The position numbers and the translations under genes are program-made. From Acidimicrobiales bacterium (GTDB lineage: Bacteria > Actinomycetota > Acidimicrobiia > Acidimicrobiales > SZUA-35): a stretch of 64,000 nt of DNA. Under the pieces are notes generated by a model, which saw nothing but the letters and a program-made list of their open reading frames with translations, did not search any database and was not told the DNA's origin. Each line of letters opens with the position of its first letter. The stretch's first letter is position 1. Below, piece by piece: positions 22,794-46,042 of the stretch. Location: positions 3,914,282 to 3,978,281 of the forward strand of contig OZ245048.1 in assembly GCA_965224435.1 (NCBI GenBank), read 5' to 3'.

Positions 22794-22819
22794 TGCGCAT
22801 ATAGGTCTACCCTGGCCAT

Positions 22820-24205: not shown

Positions 24206-24398
24206 TCCGTCATGCTCTCTGACTCGGGCGCAGTCGTCAACCGAATTCCCTAGACCGCAGGGCCACTAGCTGACAGTCTGGTCTCCATGCCCGAGATCAG
24301 TGCAAATGAGGCCGCACGCCGGTGAGACTAGGCGGCTCGTCTCGCTCATGAGCTAAGAGCCAAGCTCCCAAAGCAGGCGGTAGTCACCAGCACATCCT

Positions 24399-24421
24399 GG
24401 CATCAGCAGCCGTGTGATGCC
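24399..24421 (-). terminator. Stem-loop immediately after the methyltransferase stop codon
   Basis: GGCATCA-N9-TGATGCC, a perfect 7-bp stem. There is no U-tract, so any terminator function is weakly supported. Confidence 0.2.
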
Positions 24422-25351: not shown

Positions 25352-26386
25352 CTAGGAAATTCTGGCGTACATGTCTGGGGTGATCTGGTAGACCGCATCC
25401 TCACCAGCGAAGAAGCGACGCAGCTCCTCCACCGCAAGCTCACCCATCTGGTTGCAGTTCTCGATGCAACCAGCAGTGTGCGGAGTCAGCACCACATTGT
25501 CCAGGGTCCGCAGCGGACTATTGGGGTCAGACGGCTCGGGATCGCTCACATCAAGGAAGGCGAAGAACCGCCCCTTCGACAACTCCGCAATCAAAGCCTC
25601 TTCGTCAACCAGCTCGCCCCGTGCGGTATTGACCAGCAGGGCATCGTCCTTCATCAGGGCGAAGGCTTCAGCATTGAGGATGTGGTGAGTGGCCTCATTG
25701 GCTGGGCAATGCAATGACACCGTGTCTGAGCGGCGCAACAACTCATCCAGCTCGACCTTGCTGACTCCCAGATCGGCTGCTCCCGCTTCATCCAGGAACG
25801 GATCCGATACCAAGATCTCTACATCAAAAGGAGCCAGCATCGCTACCACGTGGCGACCAACATTGGAAGCGCCGATCAGGCCGACGGTCGAACGGCTCAG
25901 CTCCCGGGAGTCCCATTTGTCCCAGGTAGGAGAATCCCTCCAACCACCGCGTCGCAGGTTCTGACTGAGCGGAAAGATCCGCTTCCGGCCAACGATCATC
26001 ATGCCCAGAGTGGTTTCGGCCACATCCCGGGCCAGCGTGATGCCGGCACTCGTCATGTGAATCTCTCGATTCCAGAACTCCTCGGAGACAAAGCGCTTCA
26101 CACTGCTCCCCATATGAGCCATGGCTTTCATCTTCGGTGCCCCAGCCAACACATCGGCATCCAGCTGATGCACTCCCCACGAGGTAATGCAGGCGTCGGC
26201 ATCAGCCAGAAGTGCGCTCAGCTCATCCTTACCCGCTGGATCTTCTCCGGCATGAACTACGTCGGCGAACTCAGCCAGGTCAGCCAGCGCCTTGTCCGAG
26301 AACATGCGGGCGTAGCTACTGCGCCCAATAGTGATGGCCACCGTTGGACGAGAAATGATTGATGGGTCAGCTGATTCTGCCGTCAT
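25352..26386 (-). CDS. D-isomer-specific 2-hydroxyacid dehydrogenase family (NAD-binding)
   Basis: GLIGASNVGRHVV Rossmann motif. LVNTARGELVDEEAL and TPHTAG catalytic region. ATGA overlap with the upstream kinase gene. Confidence 0.85.
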   Translation of the reverse strand: MTAESADPSIISRPTVAITIGRSSYARMFSDKALADLAEFADVVHAGEDPAGKDELSALLADADACITSWGVHQLDADVLAGAPKMKAMAHMGSSVKRFVSEEFWNREIHMTSAGITLARDVAETTLGMMIVGRKRIFPLSQNLRRGGWRDSPTWDKWDSRELSRSTVGLIGASNVGRHVVAMLAPFDVEILVSDPFLDEAGAADLGVSKVELDELLRRSDTVSLHCPANEATHHILNAEAFALMKDDALLVNTARGELVDEEALIAELSKGRFFAFLDVSDPEPSDPNSPLRTLDNVVLTPHTAGCIENCNQMGELAVEELRRFFAGEDAVYQITPDMYARIS

Positions 26387-27900
26387 GATTGGGACTCCTG
26401 TTGAAGATGTTGTTGGTATCGATGCGCAAACAACTCGGTCATCCGAGCGTTTGGCGAGAATTGGATTTGGTCAATGCTGAGGGTTGCCGCCCCGGTCTGC
26501 ACGTCGGGAAAGAGCCCGCTGGCCGCACCAGCCAAGATGGCTGCACCAAGCGCTGGCAAGTCCTGGGTGGTGGCCTCAATAACCGGAAGGTCACAGACAT
26601 CGGCGATCATCTGGCTCCAACCTGGCAACCGAGTGGCGCCACCGACAATGCTCATCGCTGTTGGTCGGTGGGCGAGAGGCAAGGCCAGCAAGGTGGTACG
26701 AACCTGGAAGGCGGCGTATTCCATGATGGACCGGGCCCGATCGACATCGGCTGCTTCCAGAGAACCCTCAATGAAGACTCCGGCACCCGGTGACGTATCC
26801 GTGGTTCCACCTGCCGATTCGACCAGATGGAAGAAGGGACTGTCGACGGTTGTTTCCAATCCGACAAGATCACGGATCAGGGTGGCGAATCGACCATCGC
26901 TGGATGCCTCAGGGTCACAGGTTTCGAGCCACCACTCGATGCATACACCCATGCCACCCAAGTACTTCGAGGCCGTGAGTGAGCCGGGCACCACATGGGT
27001 GCTGATATTCATCTCCACCGGAATGTCGGCGGCTGCTTCGGGAGTGATCACGCTGGTGAGCACCCAGGCCGTTCCTCCGGCCAGCAAGGCCTGGGCAGGT
27101 TCGGTCACCCCCAGCGCCAGTGCGGTGCAGGCTTGGTCGTGACCACCACTGATTACAGCTAGGCCAGTCTCCAGATCCGTAGCTTCGGCCATGATTGGAC
27201 TGAGCTCACCGATCACGGTTCCGCTGGGGCGAAGCTCAGAAAGCTGGTCGCTCTGCAATCCAGCAAGATCGCAGAGGTTTGAGTCCCATTTGCCGGTTGC
27301 CATATCCATCATGGCCATGCCTGCGGCATTGGACGGGTTCGTCACCCACTCCCCCGTCAGCCAATTGGCGACCAGGTCATCGGCTGAGGCCGCCTGACCC
27401 TCCAGCGATTCTGGTGAGTTCGCCCGCAACCAAGCCAGCTGAGGCAACCCCTGTCCAGGGTGCACACTCCAGCCACAAATCGACCGGATGGTGTCGGACG
27501 TGCCGTCATTCTGCCAACCCTGCACGAGAGATGAGCAGCGGGTGTCCATCCAGGTTGTGAGATCGGCCGCGACCTCTCCAGCCTGATCAATGAGGACCAG
27601 CGATCCACTCTGCACAGCGGACGCAAGCGCCGCCAGTTCAACTTGGTCGTGTTCTGCTTCGTCTTGTTCTGTTTCGGCCAAGGAACTGACTAACGACCCG
27701 CTCAGCGAACCAGCCACCGCCCGAAGGCATTGCACAACCGCGTCATGCAATGCTGCGGTCGGTTGCACCGCCCAGCCAGGACGAGGCGCCCGCATCGGTA
27801 AAGAATCCGAAGTGCCCTGGGCCAAGACTTGTCCGTCCTGGCTCAGAACAACGGCCTTAACCGACGTGGTGCCTACATCCAGGCCGAGTACTGCTCTCAC
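26383..27900 (-). CDS. FGGY-family carbohydrate kinase
   Basis: [16 protein letters not shown]-terminal ATPase motif, and C-terminal [20 protein letters not shown] overlap with the upstream aldolase gene. Confidence 0.85.
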
Positions 27901-28685
27901 TCTCCAGTGGAGATGGCGTATGCCTCATCAACCGAAGCGCCGCCGTGCACGATGGCAACAATGGCTTTCGTCATGGCCGTCGGGTCTTCGCATTGGAAGA
28001 CGTTGCGGCCGATGGCAACACCAATACCGCCTGCGGCCACCGCATCGGCAATGTTGGACAGCATCTCTCGCTCATCACCCTTGGAACCACCGAGGATCAC
28101 CACGGGGGCAAACGTCTTGGTCGTAACCTCGCCATAGTTCTCGGCATAGGGGGCCTTGATGAAGTCGGCACCAAGTTCCGCACCCAGACGGGCAGCAAAA
28201 GCTACGGCTTCGGTTCCCCGAGTTTCTGGCGGTCCATCGAATCCACCGGGAACCATTTCGCCCAGAACCGGAATGCCCCACTTGTGGGCTTCACGCACCA
28301 TGTGGGCCAGATTGGTCAGGGTTGATTCTTCCTTCTCACAGCCGGGCATGGCGGTGACGACAATGGCGTCGGCTCCGAGACGGAGAGCTTCTTCGACCTC
28401 GAAGAAGGGGGTAGTGGCCGAACCGTCACTGGGGGTTCCCAGATTGGTGGCGGCGCCGTCACCTCGAAGGATCAGACCAACACGGCTTAGCTCAGCCGCA
28501 TACTTGTTGGCTATGCCGTAGGACGTGAGGATGGCGTCGGCCCCACCGGCAATGACCTTGTTGATGGTGTCGCCTGGATCGGTGAATCCTTCGATTGGCC
28601 CGTCCAGCAGGCCGTGATCAAGAGCGACAATAACGGCACGGCCGTCGGCCGCGATGATGTTGTTCAAACGACGGATGGTTGACAT
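27897..28685 (-). CDS. Class I aldolase of the DhnA/FbaB/LsrF family
   Basis: [12 protein letters not shown] ... [10 protein letters not shown] ... ADFIKAPY (candidate Schiff-base Lys) ... ILGGSK pattern. Confidence 0.75.
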
Positions 28686-28724
28686 GAGATATCTCCATGG
28701 GTTCCAGTCGGCGTGCCAGCAGGC

Positions 28725-29684
28725 TTACCGCCGGCCATCCGTGATTATGTTGTATGTCGTGTGAAGCAGCTCGAGGTTTACATCGAGGTCCTGCGACAAC
28801 ACGTCGGCCATCACTATATCGAGATCCTGCTCCGAAGCCAGAGTCGCCAGCTGATCCGAGCACTCATCTGGAGTGCCATTGATCTGGTATTGGTCCAGCA
28901 ATTCGTCACTCATCAGGTCGTCAAGTTCGGAAGCATCTGAGCTCTGAATCCGCTCAATTTGGGAGCCGCTGAACCCGAGAGACAGCAAGACTCGCTCGGG
29001 TGAATCTTTGAGGATGTAGGGCATAGTCGCCCGCTGCTCGCTGAACATTTCCGGGGTGTAACAGATACGTCCGAGATAGATCCGCTCCAGGTCAGCCCCT
29101 CGATCCGACGCGGAGTTCACGATCTCGAAGGCTGCATCCAGGTCAGGCTTGACCGTGAGCAAGACTCCATCAGCCTCACGTCCGGTGAGTCGCAAAAGCA
29201 GGGGTCCACGACTGCTTATCCAGATGGGGATCTCATGTGGTCCCGAACTCAGCTTGGCATCGTGAAGCTGGTGGGTATCGCCTTGCCAGGTCACTGACTC
29301 TCCTGACCACAGCGCTTTCATCACCTGGACGGTGTCTCGCAGCACTCGATAGGGCTTGGCCCGTTCGATCCCCATGGGATTGAGCACCATGGAGCCGCCG
29401 GCTACCAGGGTTACGAAGGCTCGACCATCAGACAGGTCGTTGAGGGTGGCCACCGCGGCGGCGGTGACTGCAGGGTGGCGGGTGTAGCCATTGGTGACAG
29501 GACCAATCTGGATCCGCTCCGTCTCGCGAGCGATAGCCCCAAGGCAGGCATAGATATCGGGGTGGAAACCCTCATCCGCTACCAGCACATAGTCATAGCC
29601 AATACGTTCGGCCTCAACGGCAATAGCAATGACGTCACTGGCCGACATGAGCGGGACGATGTGGATACCGGCACGCACCATCAA
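28725..29684 (-). CDS. LLM class flavin/F420-dependent oxidoreductase (Mer-like)
   Basis: TIM-barrel LLM pattern: GYDYVLVADE, IGPVTNGYTRHP, GRAFVTLVAGG. Confidence 0.7.
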   Translation of the reverse strand: MMVRAGIHIVPLMSASDVIAIAVEAERIGYDYVLVADEGFHPDIYACLGAIARETERIQIGPVTNGYTRHPAVTAAAVATLNDLSDGRAFVTLVAGGSMVLNPMGIERAKPYRVLRDTVQVMKALWSGESVTWQGDTHQLHDAKLSSGPHEIPIWISSRGPLLLRLTGREADGVLLTVKPDLDAAFEIVNSASDRGADLERIYLGRICYTPEMFSEQRATMPYILKDSPERVLLSLGFSGSQIERIQSSDASELDDLMSDELLDQYQINGTPDECSDQLATLASEQDLDIVMADVLSQDLDVNLELLHTTYNIITDGRR

Positions 29685-29690
29685 AATTAC

Positions 29691-30443
29691 CTATCCAGCT
29701 TCGGCTTGGCGGTGGCCATAGCGTTGTCCACCATCGATGACCAGGGTTTCGCCGTTGACATAGTCGGCTTCGATCAGGTACTTCACCCCGTGGGACATTT
29801 CTTCTGGTGTTCCCCAACGATGCACCAGGGTGTTGGCTGCGGTCCGTTCGTACTTTCCGTCGTCATAGTCATGGGGGCGAAGGGCCGGGCCAAACACCAC
29901 CGCGTTTGCTCGGACGGTTGGCGCGAGTTCCAGGGCGAACTGGCGGGTCATGGCGATGATGGCTGATTTGCCGACTGAGTGAGCGATGTAGCCGGGCCAG
30001 GCCTCAATCGACGAAAGGTCGCTCACACTGACAATGGCGCCGCCCCCACGCTTGAGCATGGAAGGTGCGGTCAGGTTGGTGCAGTAGAAGGGGCCGTTGA
30101 CCAGGGTGCTGATGGTCTTGTCCCAGACGCTCAGATCAGTGGTTGGGAACGGATCGTTGTGGAAGGAGGACGCATTGTTGACCAGGATGTCGACCCCACC
30201 AAACTTGTCGCTTGCCGCCTGCACCATGGCTTCGACCTGGGCATAGTTTCCAACGTCGGCTTGGACCGCGAGAGCTCCGACACCAAAGGCCTCGGCTTCT
30301 GTCGCGGTGGCATTGGCGTCGTCCTCGGAGTGGTTGTAGTTGATGATCACATTGGCGCCAGCTTCGGCCAAGGTCAGAGCAATGACCCGTCCGACACGCT
30401 TCGCGCTCCCGGTGACGATGGCAGTCTTGCCAGCAATATCCAT
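29691..30443 (-). CDS. SDR, pteridine reductase (PTR1/FolM)-like
   Basis: AIVTGSAKRVGRVIA and ILVNNASSFH resemble, from memory, the PTR1-type motifs VTGAAKRLGRSIA and LVNNASSFY. The active-site stretch GYIAHSVGKSA has His where the PTR1 catalytic Tyr sits. Confidence 0.55.
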   Translation of the reverse strand: MDIAGKTAIVTGSAKRVGRVIALTLAEAGANVIINYNHSEDDANATATEAEAFGVGALAVQADVGNYAQVEAMVQAASDKFGGVDILVNNASSFHNDPFPTTDLSVWDKTISTLVNGPFYCTNLTAPSMLKRGGGAIVSVSDLSSIEAWPGYIAHSVGKSAIIAMTRQFALELAPTVRANAVVFGPALRPHDYDDGKYERTAANTLVHRWGTPEEMSHGVKYLIEADYVNGETLVIDGGQRYGHRQAEAG

Positions 30444-30513
30444 GGTGAAAATCCTCTACGTTTCTGTCCGCCGGTCGGTAGGTGGGTCAGCGAGTGCGCC
30501 TGTTTGGTGTGGC

Positions 30514-31359
30514 TTACTCCCGCACCCTATTGCTTAACACCGTATTGCCAAGAACTGTGTCATGTCCATTGCCATGTCCGGTGTTAATCAGAACCACGCG
30601 CACGTCTGCTTCTTGCCTTGTGAGTTCACGGGCTAGCTCCTCGGCCAGCGGGCGAGAGGAATCATCAACCTTGGTGACAATCACGATGTATTCAGCTCCA
30701 TCCGGGCAAGCTCGCCGAGGCCCATTGGGGTGTAGCAACACACTGACAGCATGGCTGGGGTCAAGCCGTTGATACGGGTGGCATTGGGCTAGGGCGGCGA
30801 CCCGCAGCGGCCGGTGACACTGGTCAGAAATGACGCGTCCCAAGGCATCAGAACCAATGACCGAGATGAGCTTGCTGACCGAGGTGGGCACGACCGGTTC
30901 AAACGGGGCCGGTGCCTTGAACGGCATCCGCCGAGAGCCATCGGCCTCAACCACCACATTGTCCACCAGCTGGGCAAAGCGATCACACGCCTCGGGTGAT
31001 ACACCTGCAACCTTGGGACCGGGCGCCCTGCCGCCTGCTATGCCGCTCGCTATGTCGTCCGCCTCGCCACCAGACTCAACGCCGGTCTGATTCCAGACCA
31101 GAACCGGTTCGTGCTTCGCCTGACCAACGGGATCCTCGTCCGGACTCATCACCTTGAAGCCGCCATGTTGATGAGCGCCCATCCGGGTCGTGGTCGTGAG
31201 GATGACCGACCCTTTGAGTTGTCGCCCAAGGGCGTGAAGCAGCGTTGTCTTGCCCCCGCCTCCCACCAGGGCAATGTGCTCCTTCGGTCCGAGGTTCAGC
31301 CCGCGAGGCAGCTCGGCGAAGTCAAGGTAGACGGGCTTCAAGTGATCCTGTTCTGCCAC
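30514..31359 (-). CDS. yqeC: YqeC-family selenium-dependent hydroxylase accessory protein
   Basis: P-loop-like IALVGGGGKTTLLHAL near the N-terminus, about 280 aa, located directly downstream of yqeB. GTG start at 31359; an alternative TTG at 31341 overlaps the yqeB stop. Confidence 0.6.
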   Translation of the reverse strand: MAEQDHLKPVYLDFAELPRGLNLGPKEHIALVGGGGKTTLLHALGRQLKGSVILTTTTRMGAHQHGGFKVMSPDEDPVGQAKHEPVLVWNQTGVESGGEADDIASGIAGGRAPGPKVAGVSPEACDRFAQLVDNVVVEADGSRRMPFKAPAPFEPVVPTSVSKLISVIGSDALGRVISDQCHRPLRVAALAQCHPYQRLDPSHAVSVLLHPNGPRRACPDGAEYIVIVTKVDDSSRPLAEELARELTRQEADVRVVLINTGHGNGHDTVLGNTVLSNRVRE

Positions 31360-32153
31360 GTGAGCACAGCTTCCAGCACTCCACCGCCGATGGCCAAGGC
31401 CTTGTCGGAGATCTCGTCATAGGTGACATCCTGGCGCGGATCAACATCACCGATCTTGTATTGGGCCACAACCTCTTGTCCGTTTCGGATCAGGCCTCGT
31501 ACAAGGCCGTCAAAGGGAGCGACGACGTCTCTATCGCCGACTAGTCCGAGAAGCTGGTTCTCTTTCACCCTGTCACCAATGGCGCAGTCCCACTGCACAT
31601 GGCCCTCGGTGGGTGCTCGAAGCACGCGTTCGGATCCTCGACCATCAACAATGCCAGGTACACCGGTGTTTGGAGCGGCCGAACCCGACCACAACGCTCG
31701 ACCGAGCCGTGAGCCACGCTTGGTCTCGACAACGACGTCACAATCCCGGCCCGCTTCGAACCCTGGCCCGAGGGCAATCACCAGCTCGGCGTCGTCAGCA
31801 GAAGTATCGATATTGCGCTTGGCCAAACGAGCATCAATCACAACCCGAACTACTTCATCCGGAGTTTCCGCTACCGGGATATTGGGGGAGACGAGGACCG
31901 CAACCGCACCGTCCCTGGCAACCCGAGCGGCTTCTTCATAGGACGACGTGAGCCGTGCAATCATTCCTTCGACGTCAACGACCCCATCATCAACGGCACT
32001 GGACAAGCAGACGGTCCGACGTACTGCCAGCGGCTGGGCCAGCTCGGTCACAACCACCGGGAATCCGCTTCGCCACAACCGCCATGCCACCCCCGTCGCC
32101 AGGTCTCCCCCACCCCGAATGAGGCAGAGAGGCTTGGCCAAAAGGTCAGTCAT
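31338..32153 (-). CDS. yqeB: YqeB/EF2563-family selenium-dependent molybdenum hydroxylase system protein
   Basis: IRGGGDLATGVAWRLWRSGFPVVVTEL..P..VRRTV and about 270 aa match my recollection of this family (TIGR03309 type). Confidence 0.65.
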   Translation of the reverse strand: MTDLLAKPLCLIRGGGDLATGVAWRLWRSGFPVVVTELAQPLAVRRTVCLSSAVDDGVVDVEGMIARLTSSYEEAARVARDGAVAVLVSPNIPVAETPDEVVRVVIDARLAKRNIDTSADDAELVIALGPGFEAGRDCDVVVETKRGSRLGRALWSGSAAPNTGVPGIVDGRGSERVLRAPTEGHVQWDCAIGDRVKENQLLGLVGDRDVVAPFDGLVRGLIRNGQEVVAQYKIGDVDPRQDVTYDEISDKALAIGGGVLEAVLTWQNRIT

Positions 32154-32210
32154 ACAGCCACGTCACTCATACAGCCACATCACTCATACAGCCACATCAC
32201 TCATACAGCG
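32150..32210. repeat. 17-bp tandem repeat (3.5 copies) at the xdhC-yqeB junction
   Basis: Plus strand TCATACAGCCAC(G/A)TCAC x3 plus a partial copy. TCAT occurs at 32150, 32167, 32184 and 32201. Confidence 0.95.
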
Positions 32211-33016
32211 GAACGTTGGCTGGCAATGACCTCGGCCAGGATCGACACCGCAATCTCGGTGGGTGTTTCGGCTTCGATGTTCAATCCGATTGGCGACTTC
32301 ACCCGGTCAAGATTGGCTTGGGTCTCACCAGCATCTGCCAGCTTCTGACGAGTGATTTCCCAACGCCGTGTGCTGCCCATGATCCCGATGAAGGAAGCCG
32401 AACTGGCCAATAGTGGGGGCAGGATCTCCACATCGAGACCAACATTGCGGGTCGTCATCACTACCAGGGTCTGCTCGTCAATGGGCGCGATAGCCAAGGC
32501 GTCAGTGATTGGACCTGTTAGCACCTCGACACCCGAGATCGAAGAATCAATTGAGGAGGCCAGGTCTTCGCGGTCATCCCAGGCAACTACTCGGTAGCCA
32601 AGCCAGCGGGCCAATTCGACCACCGCTTGGCCGACATGGCCGATACCAATGACATAGACGGTTGCTTGTGGCATATGAGGCTCCAAGAAAATTTCGACGA
32701 TTCCACCGCAAACGCCGGGGTCACCAGCGGCAGCATCAACCAGCGAATAGGTCAGTCGGCGAGGTTTACCGTCGGACAGGGCTTCGGCTGCCTCGGCAAC
32801 GACCCGGGCTTCCATCTCGCCGCCGCCGACCGTACCTGATGACGTTCCGTCGCCGTAGATCAGCATCTTGGAACCGGGGCCGCGTGGAACCGACCGATCC
32901 GTGTCGACAATGGTGGCCAAGGCAACCGGCCGACGCGCAGCAATAGCTTCTCGCAACTCATCCAACAAGGCCACACCAGCAGCGCCGCTTGGTACAGGAA
33001 TCAGCGGTTCGACCAT
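32201..33016 (-). CDS. xdhC: XdhC/CoxI family molybdenum-cofactor insertion accessory protein
   Basis: N-terminal XdhC_CoxI-like region (VALATIVDTDRSVPRGPGSKMLI) and a Rossmann-like C-terminal domain (VYVIGIGHVGQAVVELA). The start overlaps the ssnA stop (TGATG). Confidence 0.75.
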   Translation of the reverse strand: MVEPLIPVPSGAAGVALLDELREAIAARRPVALATIVDTDRSVPRGPGSKMLIYGDGTSSGTVGGGEMEARVVAEAAEALSDGKPRRLTYSLVDAAAGDPGVCGGIVEIFLEPHMPQATVYVIGIGHVGQAVVELARWLGYRVVAWDDREDLASSIDSSISGVEVLTGPITDALAIAPIDEQTLVVMTTRNVGLDVEILPPLLASSASFIGIMGSTRRWEITRQKLADAGETQANLDRVKSPIGLNIEAETPTEIAVSILAEVIASQRSAV

Positions 33017-34323: not shown

Positions 34324-34336
34324 GGCAAAATCAACA
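34310..34336. repeat. 14-bp tandem duplication spanning the ssnA start codon
   Basis: GGCAAAATCAACA at 34310-34322 and again at 34324-34336. The ssnA ATG is the complement of 34321-34323. Confidence 0.9.
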
Positions 34337-34367
34337 GGGGCTTCAGCATGACTGGATCAACACGGGA

Positions 34368-37295: not shown

Positions 37296-37299
37296 GGGT

Positions 37300-38031: not shown

Positions 38032-38111
38032 GGTGAATCTCCGTCTGAAAATCTTGATCGATTGTTTGGTGAAAGTTACCAGAGTTTAGTTCTACTAGGC
38101 AGCCGGAATCA

Positions 38112-38693
38112 ATGTCAGAAGCCCTATTGACCTATGCTCTGGCCGTGACAGACATCCAGGTGGGCAGCGAACTGAGGCGACGACGCAATGAGCTGGGGCT
38201 GACGCTTCGACAAGTGGCCGATCAAACCGACCTGACCAGCGGATTCTTGTCCCAGGTTGAGAACGACCGAGTTTCGCCCTCACTCAAATCGCTGGGACGC
38301 ATCGCCGAAGTGTTGCATACTCCCCTCTTCCATCTACTCAGCGTCAGTGATGGAGACCCAGTCGTCCGAGCCGACGAACGTCCGACAGTCGCCTTCTCCA
38401 AAATGGGCGTGGACGTTCAGTTGCTCACCCCGTTTCGGGATTGGCAGATGCTGCCGTTCCAGCGCACGTTCGAGCCCGGTGAGGAATTCACCGCCGTTCG
38501 CTTGGAACGAGCGAGGGAAGAATGGATCATGATCCAGTCCGGCACCTTGGAAATCACCCTCGATCCCAACGAGGTTCATGTCTTGAAAGTAGGCGACACC
38601 ATCCACTTCGAAAGCAGTCGCTTGCTCAATATCAAGAACAGCGGCAAAAAGACCACCACCTACATCTGCATGATGACACCACCGGCTATCTAG
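38112..38693 (+). CDS. XRE family transcriptional regulator with C-terminal cupin domain
   Basis: HTH_3 region LRRRRNELGLTLRQVADQTDLTSGFLSQVEN. Cupin strands LEITLD...VGDTIHFES. Divergent from the hydroxylase operon across an 80-nt AT-rich spacer. Confidence 0.85.
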   Translation: MSEALLTYALAVTDIQVGSELRRRRNELGLTLRQVADQTDLTSGFLSQVENDRVSPSLKSLGRIAEVLHTPLFHLLSVSDGDPVVRADERPTVAFSKMGVDVQLLTPFRDWQMLPFQRTFEPGEEFTAVRLERAREEWIMIQSGTLEITLDPNEVHVLKVGDTIHFESSRLLNIKNSGKKTTTYICMMTPPAI

Positions 38694-38749
38694 AAGCCCT
38701 GCGACGTGCCCATCACTGATGGAGCAAAGACTCCCCAAAGCTCGACGAG

Positions 38750-39466
38750 CTACTCGGTTGGTGAGGCCGGTCCATAGATTGGGGGCTGGCCGGTGATGCC
38801 GGACCAGCGGCGGGTGCCGTGTTCGAAGTGCCACCACTCGCCAACGAAGACGACGAACCCGGCCCGCCGCATGGTCCAGTACAACAGTCGGCGGATCTCA
38901 CGATCGGGGCCAGGCTCATCCTCGATCGACAACGCAAAGGCCCGGGTGGTGATGTTGTCAAAGTCTGTACCGGGTGCAACAGCTACACCATCAAGGGTGA
39001 GGGTCAAGTCAACGGCACCACCACTCTCATGCGGTGCGGGTCGGGCTTCATCTTGTGAAGGTTCGGACATGAAGTCTGGCGGGAGGGCTGGGTCGGCAAT
39101 GGCGGTGTAATACAGCTCGGCCTGAAGTTCTCGTGGTCGCCAGCCGTCATAGACGGCAAATCCATAAGGCTCCGGCAAGGACTCAACTGCCTGATACAAC
39201 CGGGCAGCCACACTCTCCCGAAGCCAACACTGCGAGATGGCATGCTGCCAGCCGCCGAGCTCATAAAACGGGACAACATTGATCCGGGGGTGATCAACCA
39301 GAACCAGCATCTCATCAACGGGAGTATCAACCGTCAGCATGACTGGCTCCACCAGTTCAGGCAAGGCTGGTTGCTCCTCTAAAGTAATACCAGCATCGGC
39401 CAAGGCTTGAGCTGCTGGCGTACCAAGGCGGGGATAGCCAAGTTGTCGAAGATTGCTCTGATTCAT
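38750..39466 (-). CDS. D-alanyl-D-alanine dipeptidase family (VanX/DdpX, peptidase M15D)
   Basis: YDGWRPRELQ, HESGGAVDLTL and GEWWHFEH zinc/catalytic motifs. ATGA overlap with the upstream amidohydrolase gene. Confidence 0.8.
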   Translation of the reverse strand: MNQSNLRQLGYPRLGTPAAQALADAGITLEEQPALPELVEPVMLTVDTPVDEMLVLVDHPRINVVPFYELGGWQHAISQCWLRESVAARLYQAVESLPEPYGFAVYDGWRPRELQAELYYTAIADPALPPDFMSEPSQDEARPAPHESGGAVDLTLTLDGVAVAPGTDFDNITTRAFALSIEDEPGPDREIRRLLYWTMRRAGFVVFVGEWWHFEHGTRRWSGITGQPPIYGPASPTE

Positions 39467-41001
39467 CGGGTGAGACGAGACTCGACACCGGCTTTGCGGA
39501 ACAAGTGGCGAGCAGATTCGGTGGCCTCTTGTAGCAGTGCCTCTTCGTCGATCATGGTTAGATGTCGATCCTCAATGGTCAGCTTGCCGTCGACCATGAC
39601 ATGGGTGACATCGGCTGGGCTATTGCAGAACACCAGCGAGCTGACGGGGCGATGAACGGGAGAGGCAAATACCGTCTGCTGATCGACGATCACCAGATCA
39701 GCTTTTGCTCCAACTTCGAGCCGGCCAAGCTCGTCAGCAGTGCCAACCTCTTCGGGGGTCCCAAAGGCACGAGCCCCGCCGCGACACGCCATCTTGATCA
39801 CGTCTTCGGGCTGCAGGGCAACAGCATCCAGATGATGCACCTTTTGCAACAGCACCGTTGACTTCAACACCTCGAACATGTCTTGGCGGTTATTGCTACC
39901 AGGACCATCCGACGCCAAGGCAACGGTGATCCCTCGTTTCTTCATGTCCAGGATCCGAGCGACGCCTGAAGCCAGATACATGTTCGACACTGGACAGTGC
40001 ACCACGATGGAGCCGCTGTCGGCGATCATGTCCAGCTCGTCATCATCGAGCCAGACACTGTGGGCCAGCTGAAGGTCAGGACCAAGAGCACCCAGTGAGT
40101 CAAGCCAATGGATATGGCGAACCCCCCGTTCTTCCAAGCTCATGTCTACTTCGGTCTGGGTTTCGGCACAGTGAATGTGGGTTCCGACTCCCCATTCCCG
40201 AGCCTTGTCGATAGTGAGGCGCATGGCTTCATCTGAGCAGCCCCAAGGTATGAGGGGAGCTAGTTCGATGCGGACTCGGGGGTGGTCCTTCCATCGGTCA
40301 CGAAGTTGGGTGGCGCGCTCGATAACGACTTCGCCGGACTCACTCAGTTCGGGGTGATAGTTGCGGTCGGCCCAACCGCGGGCCAGCCGTAGACGGACGC
40401 CAAGCTCGTCGGCCGCTTCGCACACGGCTTGGTCGATCTGATCATCGATGTGAACGTACTGGTGGTCAACAACCGAGGTCGCACCGGTCCGCAGGTTCTC
40501 GGCCAAGCCAACCAGGGCAGCAAGCCGGGCACTGTCTCGATCGAGGTGAACGGCGCCGGGCCAAATGCACTGCTTGAGCCATTCCAACAGCGGCTTGTCG
40601 TCAGCCAAACCACGAAAGAAGGTCTGAAACAGATGCGTGTGGGCGTTGGTCATTCCTGGCATGACCAAGGATCCGGCAGCATCAATGGTTCGGTGGGCAG
40701 AACTGCGAACCAGATCGGGCGCCTGACCAGCGCCCAGGCCAACAATGCGATCACCAACAATGTGGATCCAGCCTGGATCATGAATCGTGAAATCGTCATC
40801 GACGGTGACAACAACGCCGTCCTCGATCAAGGTGCCGCCAGCAGTGACAGTGCCGCCAGCAGTGACAGTGCCGCCAGCAGTGACAGTGCCGCCAGCAGTG
40901 ACAGTGCCGCCAGCAGTGACAGTGCCGCCAGCAGTGACAGTGCCGCCAGCAGTGACAGCGCCGCCAGCAGTGACAGCGCCGCCAGCAGCAGCGTCGGTCA
41001 C
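39463..41001 (-). CDS. Amidohydrolase (COG0402; MTA/SAH-, guanine- or pterin-deaminase-like) with N-terminal (TAGGTV)n repeat
   Basis: [13 protein letters not shown] metal motif, HIHCAET and [12 protein letters not shown] 41001 overlaps the upstream LLM stop (GTGA). An alternative TTG start lies just after the repeat ([12 protein letters not shown]). Confidence 0.8.
40831..40987. repeat. 18-bp tandem repeat, about 8.7 copies (6 identical, 2 with one T>C change, 1 partial)
   Basis: Plus strand GTGACAGTGCCGCCAGCA repeated from 40844. It encodes (TAGGTV)n on the minus strand. Confidence 0.95.
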
Positions 41002-42026
41002 GATGGATCCCAGTCAGCGAAGGCGTCGACCACTGGCTTCACATCGGGCATCATCGGGAACAAGATCGGGCAAGTCACACCCGCATCGATGAACTCCTCA
41101 ACCTTCTCTCGGCATTGAGCCGAAGTACCGACAGCCATGAGCTTGCGGACCAATTCTTCGGGAATGAGGTGGGCAGCCTTGCGGTAGTCGTCCTCGGTTG
41201 CAGGCCAGCCAACGACCTTCTTGACCCGCTCCACTAATTCTGGATCGGCACCAGATGCTTCCATGATGTGAGGCTCCGTGCCCAAGTAGTAGGCGGCCAA
41301 TGACTTGCCCGCCATCACTGCTTCATCCGGATCAGTGTCGGACAAGGAGCAGACCAGAAGCTCGGGCCGGTCGATGTCTTCAATCGTCTTGCCAACCTTG
41401 GCTGCACCAGCGGCAACCTTGTCGACGGCGCCGCGGATGTAGTCGGGAGAGACAACGTAATTCAGCACGACGCCGTCGGCGATTTCGCCGGTCAGCTCCA
41501 ACATCTTGGGGCCGGTGGCTCCGATGTACATCGGGATATCGCGAGGGCCAACCTCGCCGTAAGCGACATCGAGTCGGATGCGATCCAGCTGAACAAACTC
41601 ACCTTCGTAGGTGACCTCTTCCATGGTGAACAACTGCTGGATGGCCTCGATATTCTCGCGCATGGCCTTGAGGGGTTTGCGGCGATCGGCGCCAACCCGG
41701 CTAGCAATGGGTTCCCACCAAGCACCGAGGCCACACATGACCCGGCTCTCACCTTCAGGCGTCAGGCCACCCAGTTCCCACATCGTGCTCCAGGTTGCGG
41801 CAATCACCGCAGGGTTACGGGTGTAGATGGGAAGCACACCAGAACCGATTTTCATCTTGCTGGTTTTGGTCAGGAGTGCGCTCATCATGACAATGCAGTC
41901 GCGAGCCAGGCGAGTATCGGCCTGCCAGATTTCGGAGAAGCCTTTCTCCTCGGCGTACTGAGCAATCTCCAGCTCATACGCCATATTGTGCTTGTCTTGA
42001 AGATAGAGAGCCATGCGGTGTGCCAT
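40998..42026 (-). CDS. LLM class F420-dependent oxidoreductase (Mer-like)
   Basis: Luciferase-like TIM-barrel pattern: [36 protein letters not shown]. Confidence 0.75.
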
Positions 42027-42106
42027 GGCGCCACCCTAACGAACCCTGTTAGGTAATAGCGAATATTGCATGGCTCCACTGAACAAGACTAAAGTCTGGT
42101 TGGCTG

Positions 42107-42850
42107 ATGGCTACTGGACTACTCAACGATCGCCCCATCCTGGTCACTGGCGCGGCCCAAGGTATTGGGTGCTCCATTGCCAAACGACTTTGCCAAGAAG
42201 GCGCCAACATCATCATGTTGGACCAGGACCCAGAAGTGGCCAATTCGGCGGCCTCAATCAGCGAGGATTGCCAAAGCGTCGTTGTCGACCTCTGCGATGA
42301 GGAATCCACCAAGTCCGCTATTCGTGCCGCCGCAGACAAGATGGGCGGCTTGTGGGGGGTGGTCAACAATGCAGGCATCTTCGCCAAGACACCCTTGTTG
42401 GAGATGCCCATAGCCGAGTGGGACCGAATGATGGAGGTCAATGTTCGCAGCATGGTGCTCGTCATCCAAGCGGCCGCGCCATTCATGATCAAAGCCGGTG
42501 GTGGCCGGATCATCAATCAATCCTCAATGGCAGCCAAGCTTGGCACCCCAGGGGAAGGTCACTACGCCGCATCAAAAGCTGCCGTCGGTGCACTTACCCG
42601 CATCGCCGCCCAAGAACTTGGGCCACACAGCATCACCGCCAATTCCATCTGCCCCGGATACGTCCTAACCGACATGGGAGCTGAGACTCGCGACCAAGTA
42701 CAAGTGGCGGAGTGGACGGCGAAATCACCATTGGGTCGACTGGCCACACCTGATGATATTGCCAATGCCGTGGTCTTCTTGATGTCCGACCAGGCCTCCT
42801 ACATCACCGGTGAAGCGCTCAACGTCAGCGGCGGGATGTGCACCTCGTAG
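42107..42850 (+). CDS. SDR family oxidoreductase (FabG-like)
   Basis: LVTGAAQGIG, NNAG and YAASKAAV motifs. Confidence 0.9.
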   Translation: MATGLLNDRPILVTGAAQGIGCSIAKRLCQEGANIIMLDQDPEVANSAASISEDCQSVVVDLCDEESTKSAIRAAADKMGGLWGVVNNAGIFAKTPLLEMPIAEWDRMMEVNVRSMVLVIQAAAPFMIKAGGGRIINQSSMAAKLGTPGEGHYAASKAAVGALTRIAAQELGPHSITANSICPGYVLTDMGAETRDQVQVAEWTAKSPLGRLATPDDIANAVVFLMSDQASYITGEALNVSGGMCTS

Positions 42851-42942
42851 ACACCGGCCCTAGTCGCGTTAACAACCAGTCGCTGCTTGTATCCCGGAAC
42901 ACAACGCCACCTCTTTCAACTATGGACAGGCCAGCCCCCGGA

Positions 42943-44349
42943 CTACAACAGGACGTCGCTAAGTGAACGGGCAAGGAACCGGCCGTGTCCGGCACGCCCC
43001 TGATATGTCCGGTTCTCCAAAATCACCGAGCCGCGAGATAGCACGGTCCGAACCTGGCCGGTCACTTCCATGCCCTCCCACACCGAATGGTCCAAATTCA
43101 TATGATGGGTGGCGACTCCCAAGGTGTGCTGCACGGTCGGGTCATAAATAACGACGTCGGCGTCTGAACCGGGGGCAAGCACACCCTTGCGGGGATACAT
43201 CCCGAACAGTCGAGCGGGTGTGGTTGAACACGTATCGACCCAACGCGCCAGACTCAACTCGCCAGCAACGACCCCTTGGTAGATCAGATCCATGCGATGC
43301 TCCAGTGAGCCAAGGCCGTTTGGCGTCGGTCGGAAATCATCGACACCCAACCGCTTCTCCGCATCGCAGAATGGGCAATGGTCGGTGGACACCACGGCAA
43401 GATCGTTGACCCTCAAACCCTTCCACAAATGGTCATGGGTCGAAGCTGGTCGTAGAGGGGGCGAGCAAATATGTCGCAGTCCGGCCTGCCCGGTCTGGTC
43501 CAGATGTTCCTCGAACGACAGGTACAGGTACTGCGGACACGTCTCAGCAAAGACGTTCTGGCCAGCATCTCGGGCCCACGCCACCTGCTCCAGCGCCTCA
43601 ACCGAGGTCAGGTGCACAATGTACAGCGGAGCCTCTGCTACTTCAGCCAACGCACCGGCGCGATGAACGGCCTCGGCCTCCAGCCGAGCTGGCCTGGTCC
43701 GGCCGTGCCAGACCGGATCGATATCGCCACGTTTCACTGCTTGCTCTCGCAAGACATCAATGGCAATGCCGTTCTCGGCGTGCATCATTGACAAAGCACC
43801 CAGACCACCGGCTCGTTGCATGGCTTGCAACAGCTGCCCGTCGTCGGAGTAATAGGCGCCGGGGTAGGCCATGAAGAACTTGAAACTCGTGATGCCTTCT
43901 TCGACGACCGTCTTCATTTCACCTAGTGAAGTCTCGTTGATGTCACCCATCGAAAGATGGAAGCCATAGTCGATGGCGCACTGACCTTGAGCTTCGGCCA
44001 TGCGCTCCTCGATCACATCCCGAACTAGTGAACCTTGCATCTGCCCGGCGAAGTCAAGAACGGTCGTCGTTCCACCCCACGCCGCAGCCGCTGTTCCCGA
44101 TTCAAAGGAATCGCTGGAGGTCGCTTCCGGGCTCATCGGCAGCTGGAGATGGGTATGCACGTCGACTCCACCGGGCACGACGTAACAACCGCTTGCATCA
44201 ATGACCTTGGCTGATGACTCAGCTGCTGAGCGGGCCAAGTCCGAGGCAGGGTTTAGGACCGCGGCAATGGTTTCACCGTCGATGATCAGGTCAGCTGGGG
44301 TGGCCCCGGAAGAAGAAACGACTTGGCCGCCCCGGATCAGGATGCTCAT
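42943..44349 (-). CDS. Dihydropyrimidinase / D-hydantoinase
   Basis: Start at ATG 44349 (MSILIRGG) with GGAG upstream. GGVDVHTHLQLP. SFKFFMAYPG (carbamylated-Lys motif). VSTDHCPF. Confidence 0.85.
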   Translation of the reverse strand: MSILIRGGQVVSSSGATPADLIIDGETIAAVLNPASDLARSAAESSAKVIDASGCYVVPGGVDVHTHLQLPMSPEATSSDSFESGTAAAAWGGTTTVLDFAGQMQGSLVRDVIEERMAEAQGQCAIDYGFHLSMGDINETSLGEMKTVVEEGITSFKFFMAYPGAYYSDDGQLLQAMQRAGGLGALSMMHAENGIAIDVLREQAVKRGDIDPVWHGRTRPARLEAEAVHRAGALAEVAEAPLYIVHLTSVEALEQVAWARDAGQNVFAETCPQYLYLSFEEHLDQTGQAGLRHICSPPLRPASTHDHLWKGLRVNDLAVVSTDHCPFCDAEKRLGVDDFRPTPNGLGSLEHRMDLIYQGVVAGELSLARWVDTCSTTPARLFGMYPRKGVLAPGSDADVVIYDPTVQHTLGVATHHMNLDHSVWEGMEVTGQVRTVLSRGSVILENRTYQGRAGHGRFLARSLSDVLL

Positions 44350-44371
44350 TGTTGCTCCGTTTGCTCGGGCT

Positions 44372-44794
44372 CTAGATCGGGGGCTGGGACTGGGCACTGG
44401 CAAGACGATTGGCCACGGTCTGAAGCAGCTTCCAGCCCAAGCCCGGAACCGTGTCCAGAGCTTTCTGTAGGGAGTCCTGGTCCAGAACCAGCAACTCAAG
44501 TGACGTCTTAGCTGTCACCGTTGCACTACGAGGCTCCCCTAAAATGACACCAAGTTCACCGAGCGCCTCACCCCGCTCGATCACCCCAACTTTCAGTCCA
44601 CCGCGAGTCACCTCAGCTGATCCAGCCAACACTACATAAAGGTTCGGCGATGGTGAACCTTCAGTGATCACGACATGACCAGCATCGATCTGTTCCACCC
44701 TGGATGCCTTTGCCAAACTGGTCACATCCCGCTTGCTGCAGCCATCGAAGAGGGACACGTTCAAGAGCTGTTCAGCTCGCATGTGATAGGTCAT
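44372..44794 (-). CDS. Stand-alone cyclic-nucleotide-binding (cNMP) domain protein
   Basis: LFDGCSKRDV...GEALGELGVILGEPRSATVTA matches the CAP-family phosphate-binding cassette. 140 aa, no HTH. Confidence 0.7.
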   Translation of the reverse strand: MTYHMRAEQLLNVSLFDGCSKRDVTSLAKASRVEQIDAGHVVITEGSPSPNLYVVLAGSAEVTRGGLKVGVIERGEALGELGVILGEPRSATVTAKTSLELLVLDQDSLQKALDTVPGLGWKLLQTVANRLASAQSQPPI

Positions 44795-44803
44795 CCTGCG
44801 ATA

Positions 44804-46042
44804 TTACTCACCGGTGAGCATCCACAACTCAGTTGGCCCGCGGAACTCAAAACCAGAGACCACCATCGGCCGTTCCGGGTCGAGCGTCAGCGAAGGGAAT
44901 CGGGCCAGAAGTTGCTCGACTCCTTGGCGAACCACCTGGCGGCCGAGCCATTCGCCCAGGCAGCGATGGGCACCTAGGGCAAAAGCGGCGTGAGGGCCTT
45001 GCCGTCGGTCCAGATCGATTTCCATCGGGTTGTCCCAGTGCGACTCATCATGGTTAATGGACCGAAGCACGCCGGACACCAGCGCGCCCTTGGGAATGGC
45101 CACCCCAGCCAGTTCGACGTCCTGGGTCGCCTGGCGGGTCACCGTTCCGACCGGACAATGAAGCCGAAGCACCTCTTCAACCAGACGCCCCATCTTCTGG
45201 GGCTCGGCCTTAATTCGTTCTCGCAGATCGGGACGATCCAGCAAGGTGAAGGCAACCAGGCCGATTCCCTCGCAAGGTTCGTTGATGCCACCCGAGATCA
45301 TGAGGCGAATATTGTTGATGATCTCATCGGACGTTGCTCCACCAAGGATGAAGGCGTCGATGGCACTCTGGCCAGGTTCACCCGGACCGCCCTCGCCATT
45401 GGCAGCAGCTGCGCTGGCCCGACTCTGAGCCAGGAACGGTTCCAAGGCTTCGCTTATCTCGGCCTTGGTCTTGTCGCCAACGGCCTTCAGTTCGGGGTCA
45501 TCTTCAAAGTTTGAGATATCGGCAACGAGGCCACAGCACCAGTCCCACATCTGATCAAAGCTGTGGTGGTCAAGCCCAAGCACCTTGGCCAGCGAACCAG
45601 CGGCCAAGGATTGGGCATAGCGGTCGATGAGGTCAAAACTGGTATCACCGGACTCGGAGATCGTGTCCAGAATCCCATCAGCCATCTTTCGTAGCTCACC
45701 CTTGGCGAACTCTCCACTTCTTCCACCGGCCTTGAACGAGGGCAACATGATCGAGCGGATCCGGTCCAACTTGGGAGGGTCGAGAGTGAGCATGCTCTCC
45801 CCCAACGTGCGAGCCAAGAAAGACGGTTCCGTAGCCGCGGTGAATAGCTCGGGATGATCCTCGACATAGGCGACGTCATCCCACTTGGTGACGAAGTACA
45901 TCTGCACTGAAGGCACCCAGCACACCGGTTCTTCAGCTCGCATCTTCGCCAGATATGGATCGGGATGGTCATTCAATTGGGCGAGGGTGAGATTGTCTCC
46001 GAGCATGGAGGGATAGTAGCGACCTGGCTCACTCTGGGCCAT
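44804..46042 (-). CDS. Cytochrome P450
   Basis: ExxR (EEVLRL) and heme-thiolate loop FALGAHRCLG. Confidence 0.9.
   Translation of the reverse strand: MAQSEPGRYYPSMLGDNLTLAQLNDHPDPYLAKMRAEEPVCWVPSVQMYFVTKWDDVAYVEDHPELFTAATEPSFLARTLGESMLTLDPPKLDRIRSIMLPSFKAGGRSGEFAKGELRKMADGILDTISESGDTSFDLIDRYAQSLAAGSLAKVLGLDHHSFDQMWDWCCGLVADISNFEDDPELKAVGDKTKAEISEALEPFLAQSRASAAAANGEGGPGEPGQSAIDAFILGGATSDEIINNIRLMISGGINEPCEGIGLVAFTLLDRPDLRERIKAEPQKMGRLVEEVLRLHCPVGTVTRQATQDVELAGVAIPKGALVSGVLRSINHDESHWDNPMEIDLDRRQGPHAAFALGAHRCLGEWLGRQVVRQGVEQLLARFPSLTLDPERPMVVSGFEFRGPTELWMLTGE

Follow-up and report, generated by a model that had tools for sequence, protein, structure and literature searches.

An XdhD-like molybdenum enzyme island with Mer-like luciferase-family proteins in an Acidimicrobiales bacterium: a candidate variant of reductive purine-ring degradation

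The DNA analysed here is a 64,000-nucleotide stretch of an Acidimicrobiales bacterium (contig OZ245048.1 of assembly GCA_965224435.1, positions 3,914,282 to 3,978,281; called the window below), and our subject is the run of genes surrounding an XdhD-like molybdenum (Mo) enzyme within it. An initial annotation had read positions 25352-46042 as a supercluster of ~21 kb for the breakdown of a pteridine- or purine-type N-heterocycle. Our gene map combines the open reading frame (ORF) listing with Pfam and NCBIfam scans over the 64-kb window. The genes named in that annotation are all present where it had placed them, and the GC content is even along the window (~0.59). The genes are as follows, in window coordinates and with family matches in brackets.

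25352-26386, minus strand: D-2-hydroxyacid dehydrogenase, glyoxylate/hydroxypyruvate reductase-like or phosphoglycerate dehydrogenase (PGDH)-like (2-Hacid_dh_C, 6e-53)
26383-27900, minus strand: FGGY-family sugar kinase, XylB/LsrK-like (FGGY_N and FGGY_C)
27897-28685, minus strand: DhnA/DeoC-type class-I aldolase, MJ0400/LsrF-like (DeoC, 5e-36)
28725-29684, minus strand: LLM1, Mer-like luciferase-like oxidoreductase (Bac_luciferase, 8e-53)
29691-30443, minus strand: SDR1, short-chain reductase (adh_short)
30514-31359, minus strand: YqeC (TIGR03172, 147 bits, cut-off 73; Pfam YqeC)
31338-32153, minus strand: YqeB (TIGR03309, 310 bits, cut-off 220)
32201-33016, minus strand: XdhC-family Mo-cofactor insertion chaperone (XdhC_CoxI and XdhC_C)
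33016-34323, minus strand: SsnA-like COG0402 amidohydrolase (Amidohydro_1, 1e-44)
34368-37295, minus strand: XdhD-like Mo subunit (Fer2_2, Ald_Xan_dh_C, MoCoBD_1, MoCoBD_2)
37300-38031, minus strand: YgfM-like subunit binding flavin adenine dinucleotide (FAD) (FAD_binding_5, 2e-22)
38112-38693, plus strand: regulator with an XRE-type helix-turn-helix and a cupin domain, PuuR-like (HTH_3, Cupin_2; PuuR, 47 bits, below cut-off)
38750-39466, minus strand: M15/VanX-like zinc hydrolase, called M15 below (Peptidase_M15, 1e-16)
39463-41001, minus strand: Amh2, COG0402 amidohydrolase of deaminase type (Amidohydro_1, 1e-66)
40998-42026, minus strand: LLM2, Mer-like luciferase-like oxidoreductase (Bac_luciferase, 5e-62)
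42107-42850, plus strand: SDR2, FabG/glucose-dehydrogenase-like (adh_short_C2, 9e-67; NF005559, 222 bits, cut-off 215)
42943-44349, minus strand: HyuA-like dihydropyrimidinase/hydantoinase (TIGR02033, 511 bits, cut-off 393)
44372-44794, minus strand: cyclic-nucleotide-binding (cNMP-binding) protein
44804-46042, minus strand: P450

Two gene starts were corrected. That of the Mo subunit is the ATG at 37295 (not 37484), past the stop of the FAD gene, and that of the dihydropyrimidinase is at 44349, with the stop of the cNMP gene 22 nt before it. A minus-strand ORF at 42049-42516 was rejected as spurious, the true gene there being the plus-strand SDR2. Consecutive stops and starts overlap in LLM2-Amh2-M15, and the yqeC gene overlaps the end of yqeB. 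Promoter and terminator scans returned no more sites than in shuffled sequence, and the four intergenic regions that were checked contained no inverted repeats, so we read operon structure from gene spacing alone. This spacing suggests the units LLM2-Amh2-M15, a string running from the FAD subunit to the 2-hydroxyacid dehydrogenase and divergent from the regulator, and P450-cNMP-dihydropyrimidinase. A 17-bp tandem repeat, TCACTCATACAGCCACA (3.8 copies, 95% matches, window 32146-32209), fills the short stretch that separates the stop of XdhC from the start of YqeB.

Conservation was assessed by comparing the window proteins with about 100 fetched related loci (designated L with a number) by tblastn. 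The loci were dereplicated at 90% identity of the Mo subunit, which gave 44 groups, and a homologue was counted at ≥40% identity; genes downstream were counted in the 18 groups with ≥6 kb of downstream sequence and genes upstream in the 27 groups with ≥3 kb upstream. The FAD subunit was found in 18/18 groups (it lies upstream of the Mo subunit in 43/44 groups overall), XdhC and YqeB each in 17/18, the SsnA-like amidohydrolase in 14/18, YqeC in 12/18 (in the others it is present at <40%) and M15 in 6/18. On the upstream side LLM2 adjoins the Mo operon in 14 of the 27 groups and Amh2 is present in 13. The conserved core is window 30514-42026, comprising LLM2, Amh2 and M15 and, divergently, the FAD and Mo subunits, the SsnA-like protein, XdhC, YqeB and YqeC. 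Homologues of the P450, the cNMP-binding protein and the GT4, EamA, APH and methyltransferase genes were found in 0/44 groups. The co-conserved unit therefore runs from ~25352 to 44349, and not to 46042, because the P450 and cNMP-binding genes never co-occur with the rest; as pathway members these two were rejected, despite their tight spacing upstream of the hydantoinase here. The gene-neighbourhood comparison bears out most of what the initial annotation had grouped together, namely the XdhD/YgfM-type Mo enzyme with its maturation genes, the amidohydrolases, luciferase-like proteins, hydantoinase and VanX-like hydrolase, and also the kinase/aldolase/dehydrogenase set described below. Its far end, with the P450 and an embedded cNMP-binding protein, has to be given up.

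The Mo subunit has hundreds of homologues with 67-98% identity in metagenome-assembled genomes (MAGs) of Acidimicrobiia and in marine (including TARA), sediment and soil metagenomes. Among species-representative genomes, the nearest YqeB genes are also in Acidimicrobiia MAGs (Acidimicrobiaceae, Ilumatobacter; 56-66% identity). The clustering is beyond chance, and the supercluster is real minus its P450/cNMP end. Because the same families recur in many different orders across lineages, there is good evidence that they are functionally coupled. Only the closest relatives (L019, L021, L024, L025) retain the XRE-cupin regulator, and SDR2 orthologues occur only in L019 (93%) and L021 (69%), so that the membership of SDR2 in the unit is uncertain. 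L019, whose Mo subunit is 98% identical, has an NMT1/NitT-TauT-type ATP-binding cassette (ABC) transporter between the hydantoinase and SDR2 (L019 365-4677; no counterpart in window 42850-42943) and a GNAT gene between M15 and the regulator (L019 8201-8584; no counterpart in window 38693-38750). The island is undergoing remodelling between very close strains.

The Mo subunit aligns with E. coli XdhD over its full length at 35.5% identity, and with XdhA at 34%. It scores 660 bits against the XdhD family model (TIGR03313, cut-off 1102) and 671 bits against the XdhA model. All eight cysteines for [2Fe-2S] clusters are replaced in the window protein, in 124/124 relatives and in E. coli XdhD (L104 25317-28187); the cysteine-less Fer2 region makes up the N-terminal 150 residues (window 36850-37295). 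The residues of bovine xanthine oxidase were mapped as far as the GGGFGxK(E/Q) and GEPP motifs. The catalytic Glu is E933 in the window and invariant in the 124 relatives, and the position that we take, from its motif and the alignment, to be that of bovine Glu802 is occupied by Gln. Glu606, the XdhD residue singled out by Li et al. (PMC12507026), is equivalent to E611 in the window and is Glu in 124/124 relatives; XdhA has Lys. Neither PMC12507026 nor bioRxiv 10.1101/2025.04.24.650524 mentions the loss of the Fe-S cysteines in XdhD. The best solved-structure match of the Mo domain is the alpha subunit of 4-hydroxybenzoyl-CoA reductase (PDB 1RM6, 355 bits), a reductive dehydroxylase of the xanthine oxidase family. 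That enzyme, whose substrate is an aromatic coenzyme A (CoA) thioester, comes with Fe-S and FAD subunits of its own; the window core has no CoA-related genes. The FAD subunit is 31% identical to E. coli YgfM versus 25% to XdhB, and keeps the AGGT and TIGG motifs.

The comparison with the E. coli ygf/yqe locus, which the initial annotation had drawn while taking that system to be uncharacterised, has gained in meaning. The E. coli ygeW-xdhD locus encodes the reductive urate pathway via 2,8-dioxopurine (yanthine), which was solved in 2025 in gut anaerobes (PMC12507026; bioRxiv 10.1101/2025.04.24.650524). XdhD-YgfM reduces urate to 2,8-dioxopurine (PMC12507026), which is dearomatised by YgfK or, in C. 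difficile, by the PydA-like UacX (PMC12507026; bioRxiv 10.1101/2025.04.24.650524). SsnA then opens the ring and HyuA yields 2,3-diureidopropionate (PMC12507026), from which YgeW/UacY and YgeY release 2,3-diaminopropionate, to be turned into pyruvate by YgeX (PMC12507026; bioRxiv 10.1101/2025.04.24.650524). The clostridial Mo enzyme is selenium-dependent and needs SelD (bioRxiv 10.1101/2025.04.24.650524). The window shares with this system an XdhD-like Mo subunit (likewise with Fer2 domains that have lost their cysteines, and with the Glu606 equivalent), the YgfM-like FAD subunit, an SsnA-related amidohydrolase beside the Mo genes, a hydantoinase similar to HyuA, a neighbouring COG0402 deaminase (compare guaD in E. 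coli) and the YqeB, YqeC and XdhC genes; the homologues of XdhD, YgfM, YqeB, YqeC and HyuA justify calling it an actinobacterial variant of the E. coli locus. It differs in having no YgfK or UacX, at whose place stand Mer-like luciferase-like proteins, in the scores of its SsnA-, XdhD- and YgfM-like proteins, which fall below the curated family cut-offs, in the added M15 hydrolase, XRE-cupin regulator and SDR-LLM-aldolase-kinase-dehydrogenase module, and in its hosts, which are marine, sediment and soil Acidimicrobiia rather than gut anaerobes.

The best NCBIfam and PDB matches of LLM2 are all to enzymes using coenzyme F420 (Mer, Fgd), and all are below the curated cut-offs; its relatives are 72-84% identical. 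For LLM1 the best NCBIfam match is Mer (175 bits, below cut-off), and orthologues are 57-70% identical. Li et al. (2025) describe Chloroflexota neighbourhoods of SsnA (IPR017700) that lack YgfK/UacX and contain a PF00296 'F420' luciferase-family protein instead (PMC12507026, Fig. 3c and Discussion), which they propose, from neighbourhoods alone, to be an F420-dependent yanthine reductase (PMC12507026). As in the window, a PF00296 luciferase-like protein occupies the place of YgfK/UacX. Their network consists of IPR017700 SsnA proteins, whereas the SsnA-like protein of the window falls short of the SsnA family cut-off (226 versus 455.5 bits) and is therefore probably absent from it. A homologue search with LLM2 returned Acidimicrobiia proteins only (≥79% identity) and did not reach the Chloroflexota proteins. 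In the literature searched, we found no paper besides Li et al. that links F420 to yanthine.

Of the two amidohydrolases, the SsnA-like protein carries the motifs WW, FExTxR and HxxFT, which are found only in SsnA. In a bootstrapped neighbour-joining tree with limited sampling, its family forms the sister group (92% bootstrap) of E. coli SsnA together with an SsnA-type family from marine sources. Judging from motifs and tree, it is a relative of SsnA that falls outside the curated family. Amh2 matches 5'-deoxyadenosine deaminase best among the NCBIfam models (371 bits, cut-off 522), followed by 8-oxoguanine deaminase (309 bits), and its best PDB matches are methylthioadenosine and 8-oxoguanine deaminases; identity to E. 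coli GuaD and SsnA is 27% each. Its family is sister, with 100% bootstrap in the same tree, to one that passes the 8-oxoguanine deaminase model (550 bits, cut-off 532), and orthologues with 56-72% identity adjoin LLM2 in relatives. Within the 5' end of the Amh2 ORF lies a near-perfect 18-bp tandem repeat (8.7 copies, window 40832-40988) that would encode an N-terminal (TVTAGG)n. The Amh2 homologue of L019, a close relative, is shorter by 42 residues, so that the number of repeat copies seems to vary between close strains.

Several relatives connect the window to the known pathway. L103 pairs a bona fide YgfK (TIGR03315, 894 bits, cut-off 835) with an SsnA-type gene, and both run divergently from FAD-Mo(67%)-XdhC-YqeB-YqeC; it is the E. 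coli quartet built around the Mo clade of the window. L002, from an Acidimicrobiaceae MAG, has a Mo enzyme with a real Fe-S subunit and, after it, an SsnA-type gene, a luciferase-like protein 50% identical to LLM2, a diaminopropionate ammonia-lyase/YgeX gene (NF006058, 328 bits, cut-off 276), YqeB and YqeC. It is the only related locus with YgeX, and it lacks YgfK. In L002 a protein of the LLM2 kind therefore stands at the place of YgfK beside two hallmark genes of the pathway. Several marine relatives possess a paralogous second module beside the first, in which another Mo enzyme, lacking Fer2 domains, is accompanied by an 8-oxoguanine deaminase, an SsnA-type gene and a luciferase-like protein 49% identical to LLM2; the two modules share a single YqeB/YqeC set. 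A second Mo enzyme without Fer2 domain or FAD subunit, beside another luciferase-like protein, lies downstream of M15 in L051, L058, L060, L063, L069, L087 and L088, and the same pairing is found in L106 (1028-4373) and L109 (4367-7756); the window holds one module only.

Transport and salvage genes in relatives give further hints of the substrate. A PnrA/Bmp-type ABC transporter (purine-nucleoside-receptor family) is inserted between the Mo genes and YqeB-YqeC in L004, a PnrA/Bmp-type ATPase is found in L082 and L101, with a matching permease in L082, and in L099 a 5'-nucleotidase, a nucleotide pyrophosphatase and a xylose-isomerase-like protein are interleaved with the aldolase, Mo subunit, kinase and dehydrogenase. 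Because relatives carry 8-oxoguanine deaminase, SsnA-type, YgfK, diaminopropionate ammonia-lyase, PnrA-type transporter and 5'-nucleotidase genes, gene content favours purines or purine nucleosides over pteridines as the substrate class. Of the two substrate classes first proposed, it is the purine side that the relatives support, the evidence for pteridines being weaker.

YqeB and YqeC mark the trait of selenium-dependent molybdenum hydroxylases (Haft and Self 2008, PMC2276186; Peng et al. 2016, PMC5029168), which was earlier reported as largely host-associated and as ~80% anaerobic (PMC2276186; PMC5029168). In the window both score above their cut-offs and lie next to a xanthine-dehydrogenase-family enzyme, as in the reported trait. 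The window YqeB shares 44% identity with the C-terminal half of its E. coli namesake, XdhC is 33% identical to residues 16-254 of the same protein (its N-terminal half), and YqeC is 31% identical to E. coli YqeC. The difference from the reported trait lies in the hosts, widespread marine, sediment and soil Acidimicrobiia, and in the absence of SelD from the window and related loci. YqeB/YqeC are common in the marine, sediment and soil Acidimicrobiia loci (L001-L007, L019-L103, L106-L109), with no SelD nearby.

A five-gene module, SDR1-LLM1-aldolase-FGGY kinase-2-hydroxyacid dehydrogenase, recurs in rearranged orders; in L054, L081, L099, L107, L108 and L109, Mo-cluster genes are no more than 10 kb away from it. 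The kinase/aldolase/dehydrogenase set had first been judged rare (L054, L081, L099) and not co-conserved. This was overturned by a search seeded with the aldolase, in which all three long contigs examined (L107-L109) had the five-gene string ≤10 kb from Mo-cluster genes. In L107 the module follows Mo-SsnA-XdhC-YqeB-YqeC; in L108 an LLM2 orthologue (83%) directly heads it, with M15 behind; in L109 it has the FAD-Mo genes on one side and, on the other, a second Mo enzyme with LLM2 (76%). SDR1 orthologues (62-81% identity) head the module in L054 and L107-L109, aldolase orthologues (70-82%) adjoin Mo-cluster genes in L054, L081 and L107-L109, the FGGY kinase (best PDB matches LsrK and xylulokinase) recurs with the aldolase, and dehydrogenase orthologues (61-79%) come directly after the kinase. 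The aldolase scores 223 bits against NF005556 (cut-off 241), and its best PDB match is MJ0400 (6e-43). SDR1 contains the motif TGxxxRxG (VTGSAKRVG in its sequence) and matches PRK09134 (193 bits) and the pteridine reductase model PRK09135 (178 bits, cut-off 288), both below cut-offs; its nearest solved structures are FabL and FabG, with no PTR1 at E ≤ 1e-30. Beside the module in L108 (2301-7106; 16984-18327) lie an Mch gene (329 bits), a 2-oxoacid dehydrogenase complex and a UbiD-family decarboxylase. To our knowledge Mch is unusual outside methanogens and methylotrophs, and in L108 it may act on an amidine ring.

The dihydropyrimidinase is 42% identical to E. coli HyuA, and its orthologues in relatives (64-70%) are often found beside a creatininase-family gene. 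M15 scores 61 bits against DdpX (cut-off 176) and 26 bits against VanX (cut-off 320), with its HxxGxAxD and ExxH motifs intact; orthologues with 43-88% identity recur after YqeC or a luciferase-like gene in relatives. By analogy, an N-carbamoyl-D-amino acid would resemble a truncated D-Ala-D-Ala and might suit such an active site.

Taking this together, we favour the interpretation, with a probability of roughly 0.55, that the island encodes an Acidimicrobiia variant of reductive purine-ring degradation, related to the 2,8-dioxopurine pathway and using a luciferase-like, F420-type reductase. Amh2 would deaminate an amino-oxopurine to an oxopurine that feeds the pathway. The YgfM-like FAD subunit and the XdhD-like Mo subunit would hydroxylate or dehydroxylate the ring, as when urate and 2,8-dioxopurine are interconverted, with XdhC, YqeB and YqeC maturing the Mo subunit, possibly with a labile selenium ligand. 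LLM2, probably F420H2-dependent, would dearomatise the dioxopurine in place of YgfK/UacX, and the SsnA-like amidohydrolase would be the ring-opening hydrolase. The resulting hydantoin, cyclic and linear ureido compounds might be cleaved by the HyuA-like dihydropyrimidinase and M15. The five-gene module may serve in handling the nucleoside sugar, in assimilating C2/C3 products or in regenerating F420H2, and the XRE-cupin regulator probably controls the Mo operon. The gene identities, their co-conservation, the sequence traits held in common with XdhD and SsnA, and the bridge loci L103 and L002 are observations; in this scheme we infer the substrate, the direction of the Mo step, the use of F420 and selenium, and the roles of M15 and the five-gene module.

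A number of observations weigh against this scheme. Comparison with the E. coli proteins detected no homologue of YgeW, YgeX, YgeY, YqeA or YgfK in the window, no nucleoside phosphorylase or hydrolase was seen, and the window ORFs scanned included none for the biosynthesis of F420. SelD has no homologue in the 64-kb window or in any related locus of Acidimicrobiia type. The Mo and FAD subunits score below the curated NCBIfam cut-offs for XdhD and YgfM. For the SsnA-like protein SsnA is the best NCBIfam match, but the scores are well short of the cut-offs (TIGR03314, 226 bits versus 455.5; PRK07203, 233 versus 444) and its identity to E. coli SsnA is 26%. Judged by curated family models, the window would not be counted a member of the E. 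coli-type pathway. With the Fe-S clusters gone, the usual electron path between FAD and Mo would be missing. The module of the window is a paralogue of one with clearer purine markers, and hence its substrate may be another, related oxopurine or heterocycle. Finally, the Mer-like proteins, an SDR with the TGxxxRxG motif and the Mch of L108 would also suit a pterin substrate.

This last point leads to the alternative of a pteridine, lumazine or flavin island, in which the COG0402 enzymes would deaminate pterin or isoxanthopterin, the Mo enzyme would hydroxylate the pteridine ring, SDR1 and the Mer-like proteins would reduce it, and a polyol side chain would be handled by the kinase, aldolase and dehydrogenase. 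The TGxxxRxG motif of SDR1 is of FolM/PTR1 type and a pteridine reductase is among its top NCBIfam matches, Mer, the nearest characterised relative of the luciferase-like proteins, acts on a pterin, the Mch gene beside the five-gene module in L108 is a strong match, and the sugar-type module is truly linked. Yet SDR1 lies outside the most conserved core, and the initial view of it as PTR1-like comes down to that motif, given its sub-threshold scores and its FabL- and FabG-type structural neighbours. Isoxanthopterin deaminase (2PAJ) matches both amidohydrolases less well than purine-type deaminases do, and the bridge loci with YgfK, SsnA-type, YgeX and 8-oxoguanine deaminase genes, as well as the relatives with nucleoside-type transport and nucleotidase genes, speak for purines; we consider a pteridine substrate rather unlikely. 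The 5'-deoxyadenosine deaminase and methylthioadenosine deaminase matches of Amh2 raise another idea, disposal of 5'-deoxyadenosine or methylthioadenosine, with Amh2 deaminating the nucleoside, the Mo enzyme oxidising the base, and the 5-deoxyribose being phosphorylated and split by the aldolase. MJ0400, the best solved relative of the aldolase, works on a 5'-deoxyadenosine-derived sugar in methanogens, and a kinase of the APH/MtnK superfamily is encoded at 23300-24205. However, every one of these matches is below its cut-off, neither a nucleoside phosphorylase nor an isomerase was seen, the APH gene shows no co-conservation at ≥40% identity, the tree places Amh2 with the family of 8-oxoguanine deaminases, and the SsnA-like protein, hydantoinase and M15 would be left unexplained. 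This role appears very improbable.

The locus might also be an ordinary oxidative one, in which a guanine-type deaminase and a xanthine dehydrogenase produce urate, and the luciferase-like proteins, SDRs and sugar genes are unrelated neighbours. The near-equal scores of the Mo subunit against the XdhA and XdhD models, the presence of an FAD subunit and the guanine deaminases within COG0402 would fit. Against this, a Mo subunit without Fe-S ligands leaves no canonical electron transfer to FAD, the presumed Glu802 position is Gln, the annotated loci showed neither uricase nor allantoin genes, and LLM2, Amh2, M15 and the five-gene module recur with the Mo enzyme in several arrangements. We regard an oxidative locus as improbable. 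There may be no single pathway at all, the region being a flexible one that gathers several small, independent catabolic operons, one using pyrimidines or hydantoins reductively, another for a sugar pathway and another for a Mo enzyme. It has at least four transcription directions or units; its edges differ even from those of L019, with an ABC transporter and a GNAT gene in L019 and the P450 and cNMP-binding genes in the window; many loci hold Mo-XdhC-YqeB-YqeC only; and the dihydropyrimidinase passes the standard dihydropyrimidinase model. What makes such a collection unlikely is that the same families occur together in many orders and in lineages whose Mo subunits share 67-98% identity.

Within the interpretation as reductive purine degradation, a more far-reaching proposal would be that XdhD-type enzymes without Fe-S ligands operate by two-electron exchange instead of classical electron-chain hydroxylation. 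This might be a redox-neutral transhydroxylation (2,6- to 2,8-dioxopurine via urate) or a coupling to a hydride carrier by way of the neighbouring F420-type luciferase-like protein or of the FAD subunit. Purine degradation of an 'anaerobic style', linked to selenium and deazaflavin, would then be a main nitrogen route of widespread marine, sediment and soil Acidimicrobiia. We hold this to be a long shot.

The low-end flank of the island (window 21839-25303) encodes an EamA transporter, an APH-family kinase and an S-adenosylmethionine (SAM) methyltransferase. No orthologues of these genes at ≥40% identity were found in the islands of relatives; at the family level, EamA, choline/APH kinase and methyltransferase counterparts are present inside the islands of L022 (5704-6567), L106 (6737-9906) and L109 (980-4362). 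The flank may be part of an extended, variable island. In many marine relatives an SDR gene separates the Mo subunit from the SsnA-like gene, and an SDR ORF of the window at 19129-19923 (plus strand) is 39% identical to it. This ORF overlaps one on the minus strand (19105-20091), which is longer but without a family match. Elsewhere the window contains two further luciferase-like oxidoreductases, a wax-ester synthase/diacylglycerol acyltransferase (DGAT) and a large DUF4214-repeat protein (5782-6714, 52875-53792, 55115-56893 and 19988-21856), which fit an F420-rich, lipid-storing actinobacterium.

Our results suggest that a relative of the 2,8-dioxopurine pathway with a different, probably F420-dependent reductase is common in Acidimicrobiia of sea water, sediment and soil. 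What is new is a candidate luciferase-like, F420-type version in a widespread environmental group, with extra linked modules, where previously there was a passing mention for Chloroflexota. If the interpretation is correct, coenzyme F420 would gain a role in nucleobase catabolism, and the selenium-cofactor trait would extend from mainly host-associated anaerobes to marine, sediment and soil bacteria. The Acidimicrobiia enzymes would then provide a natural test case for an XdhD-type enzyme working without iron-sulphur clusters, and the ocean would have an added route for recycling purine nitrogen.

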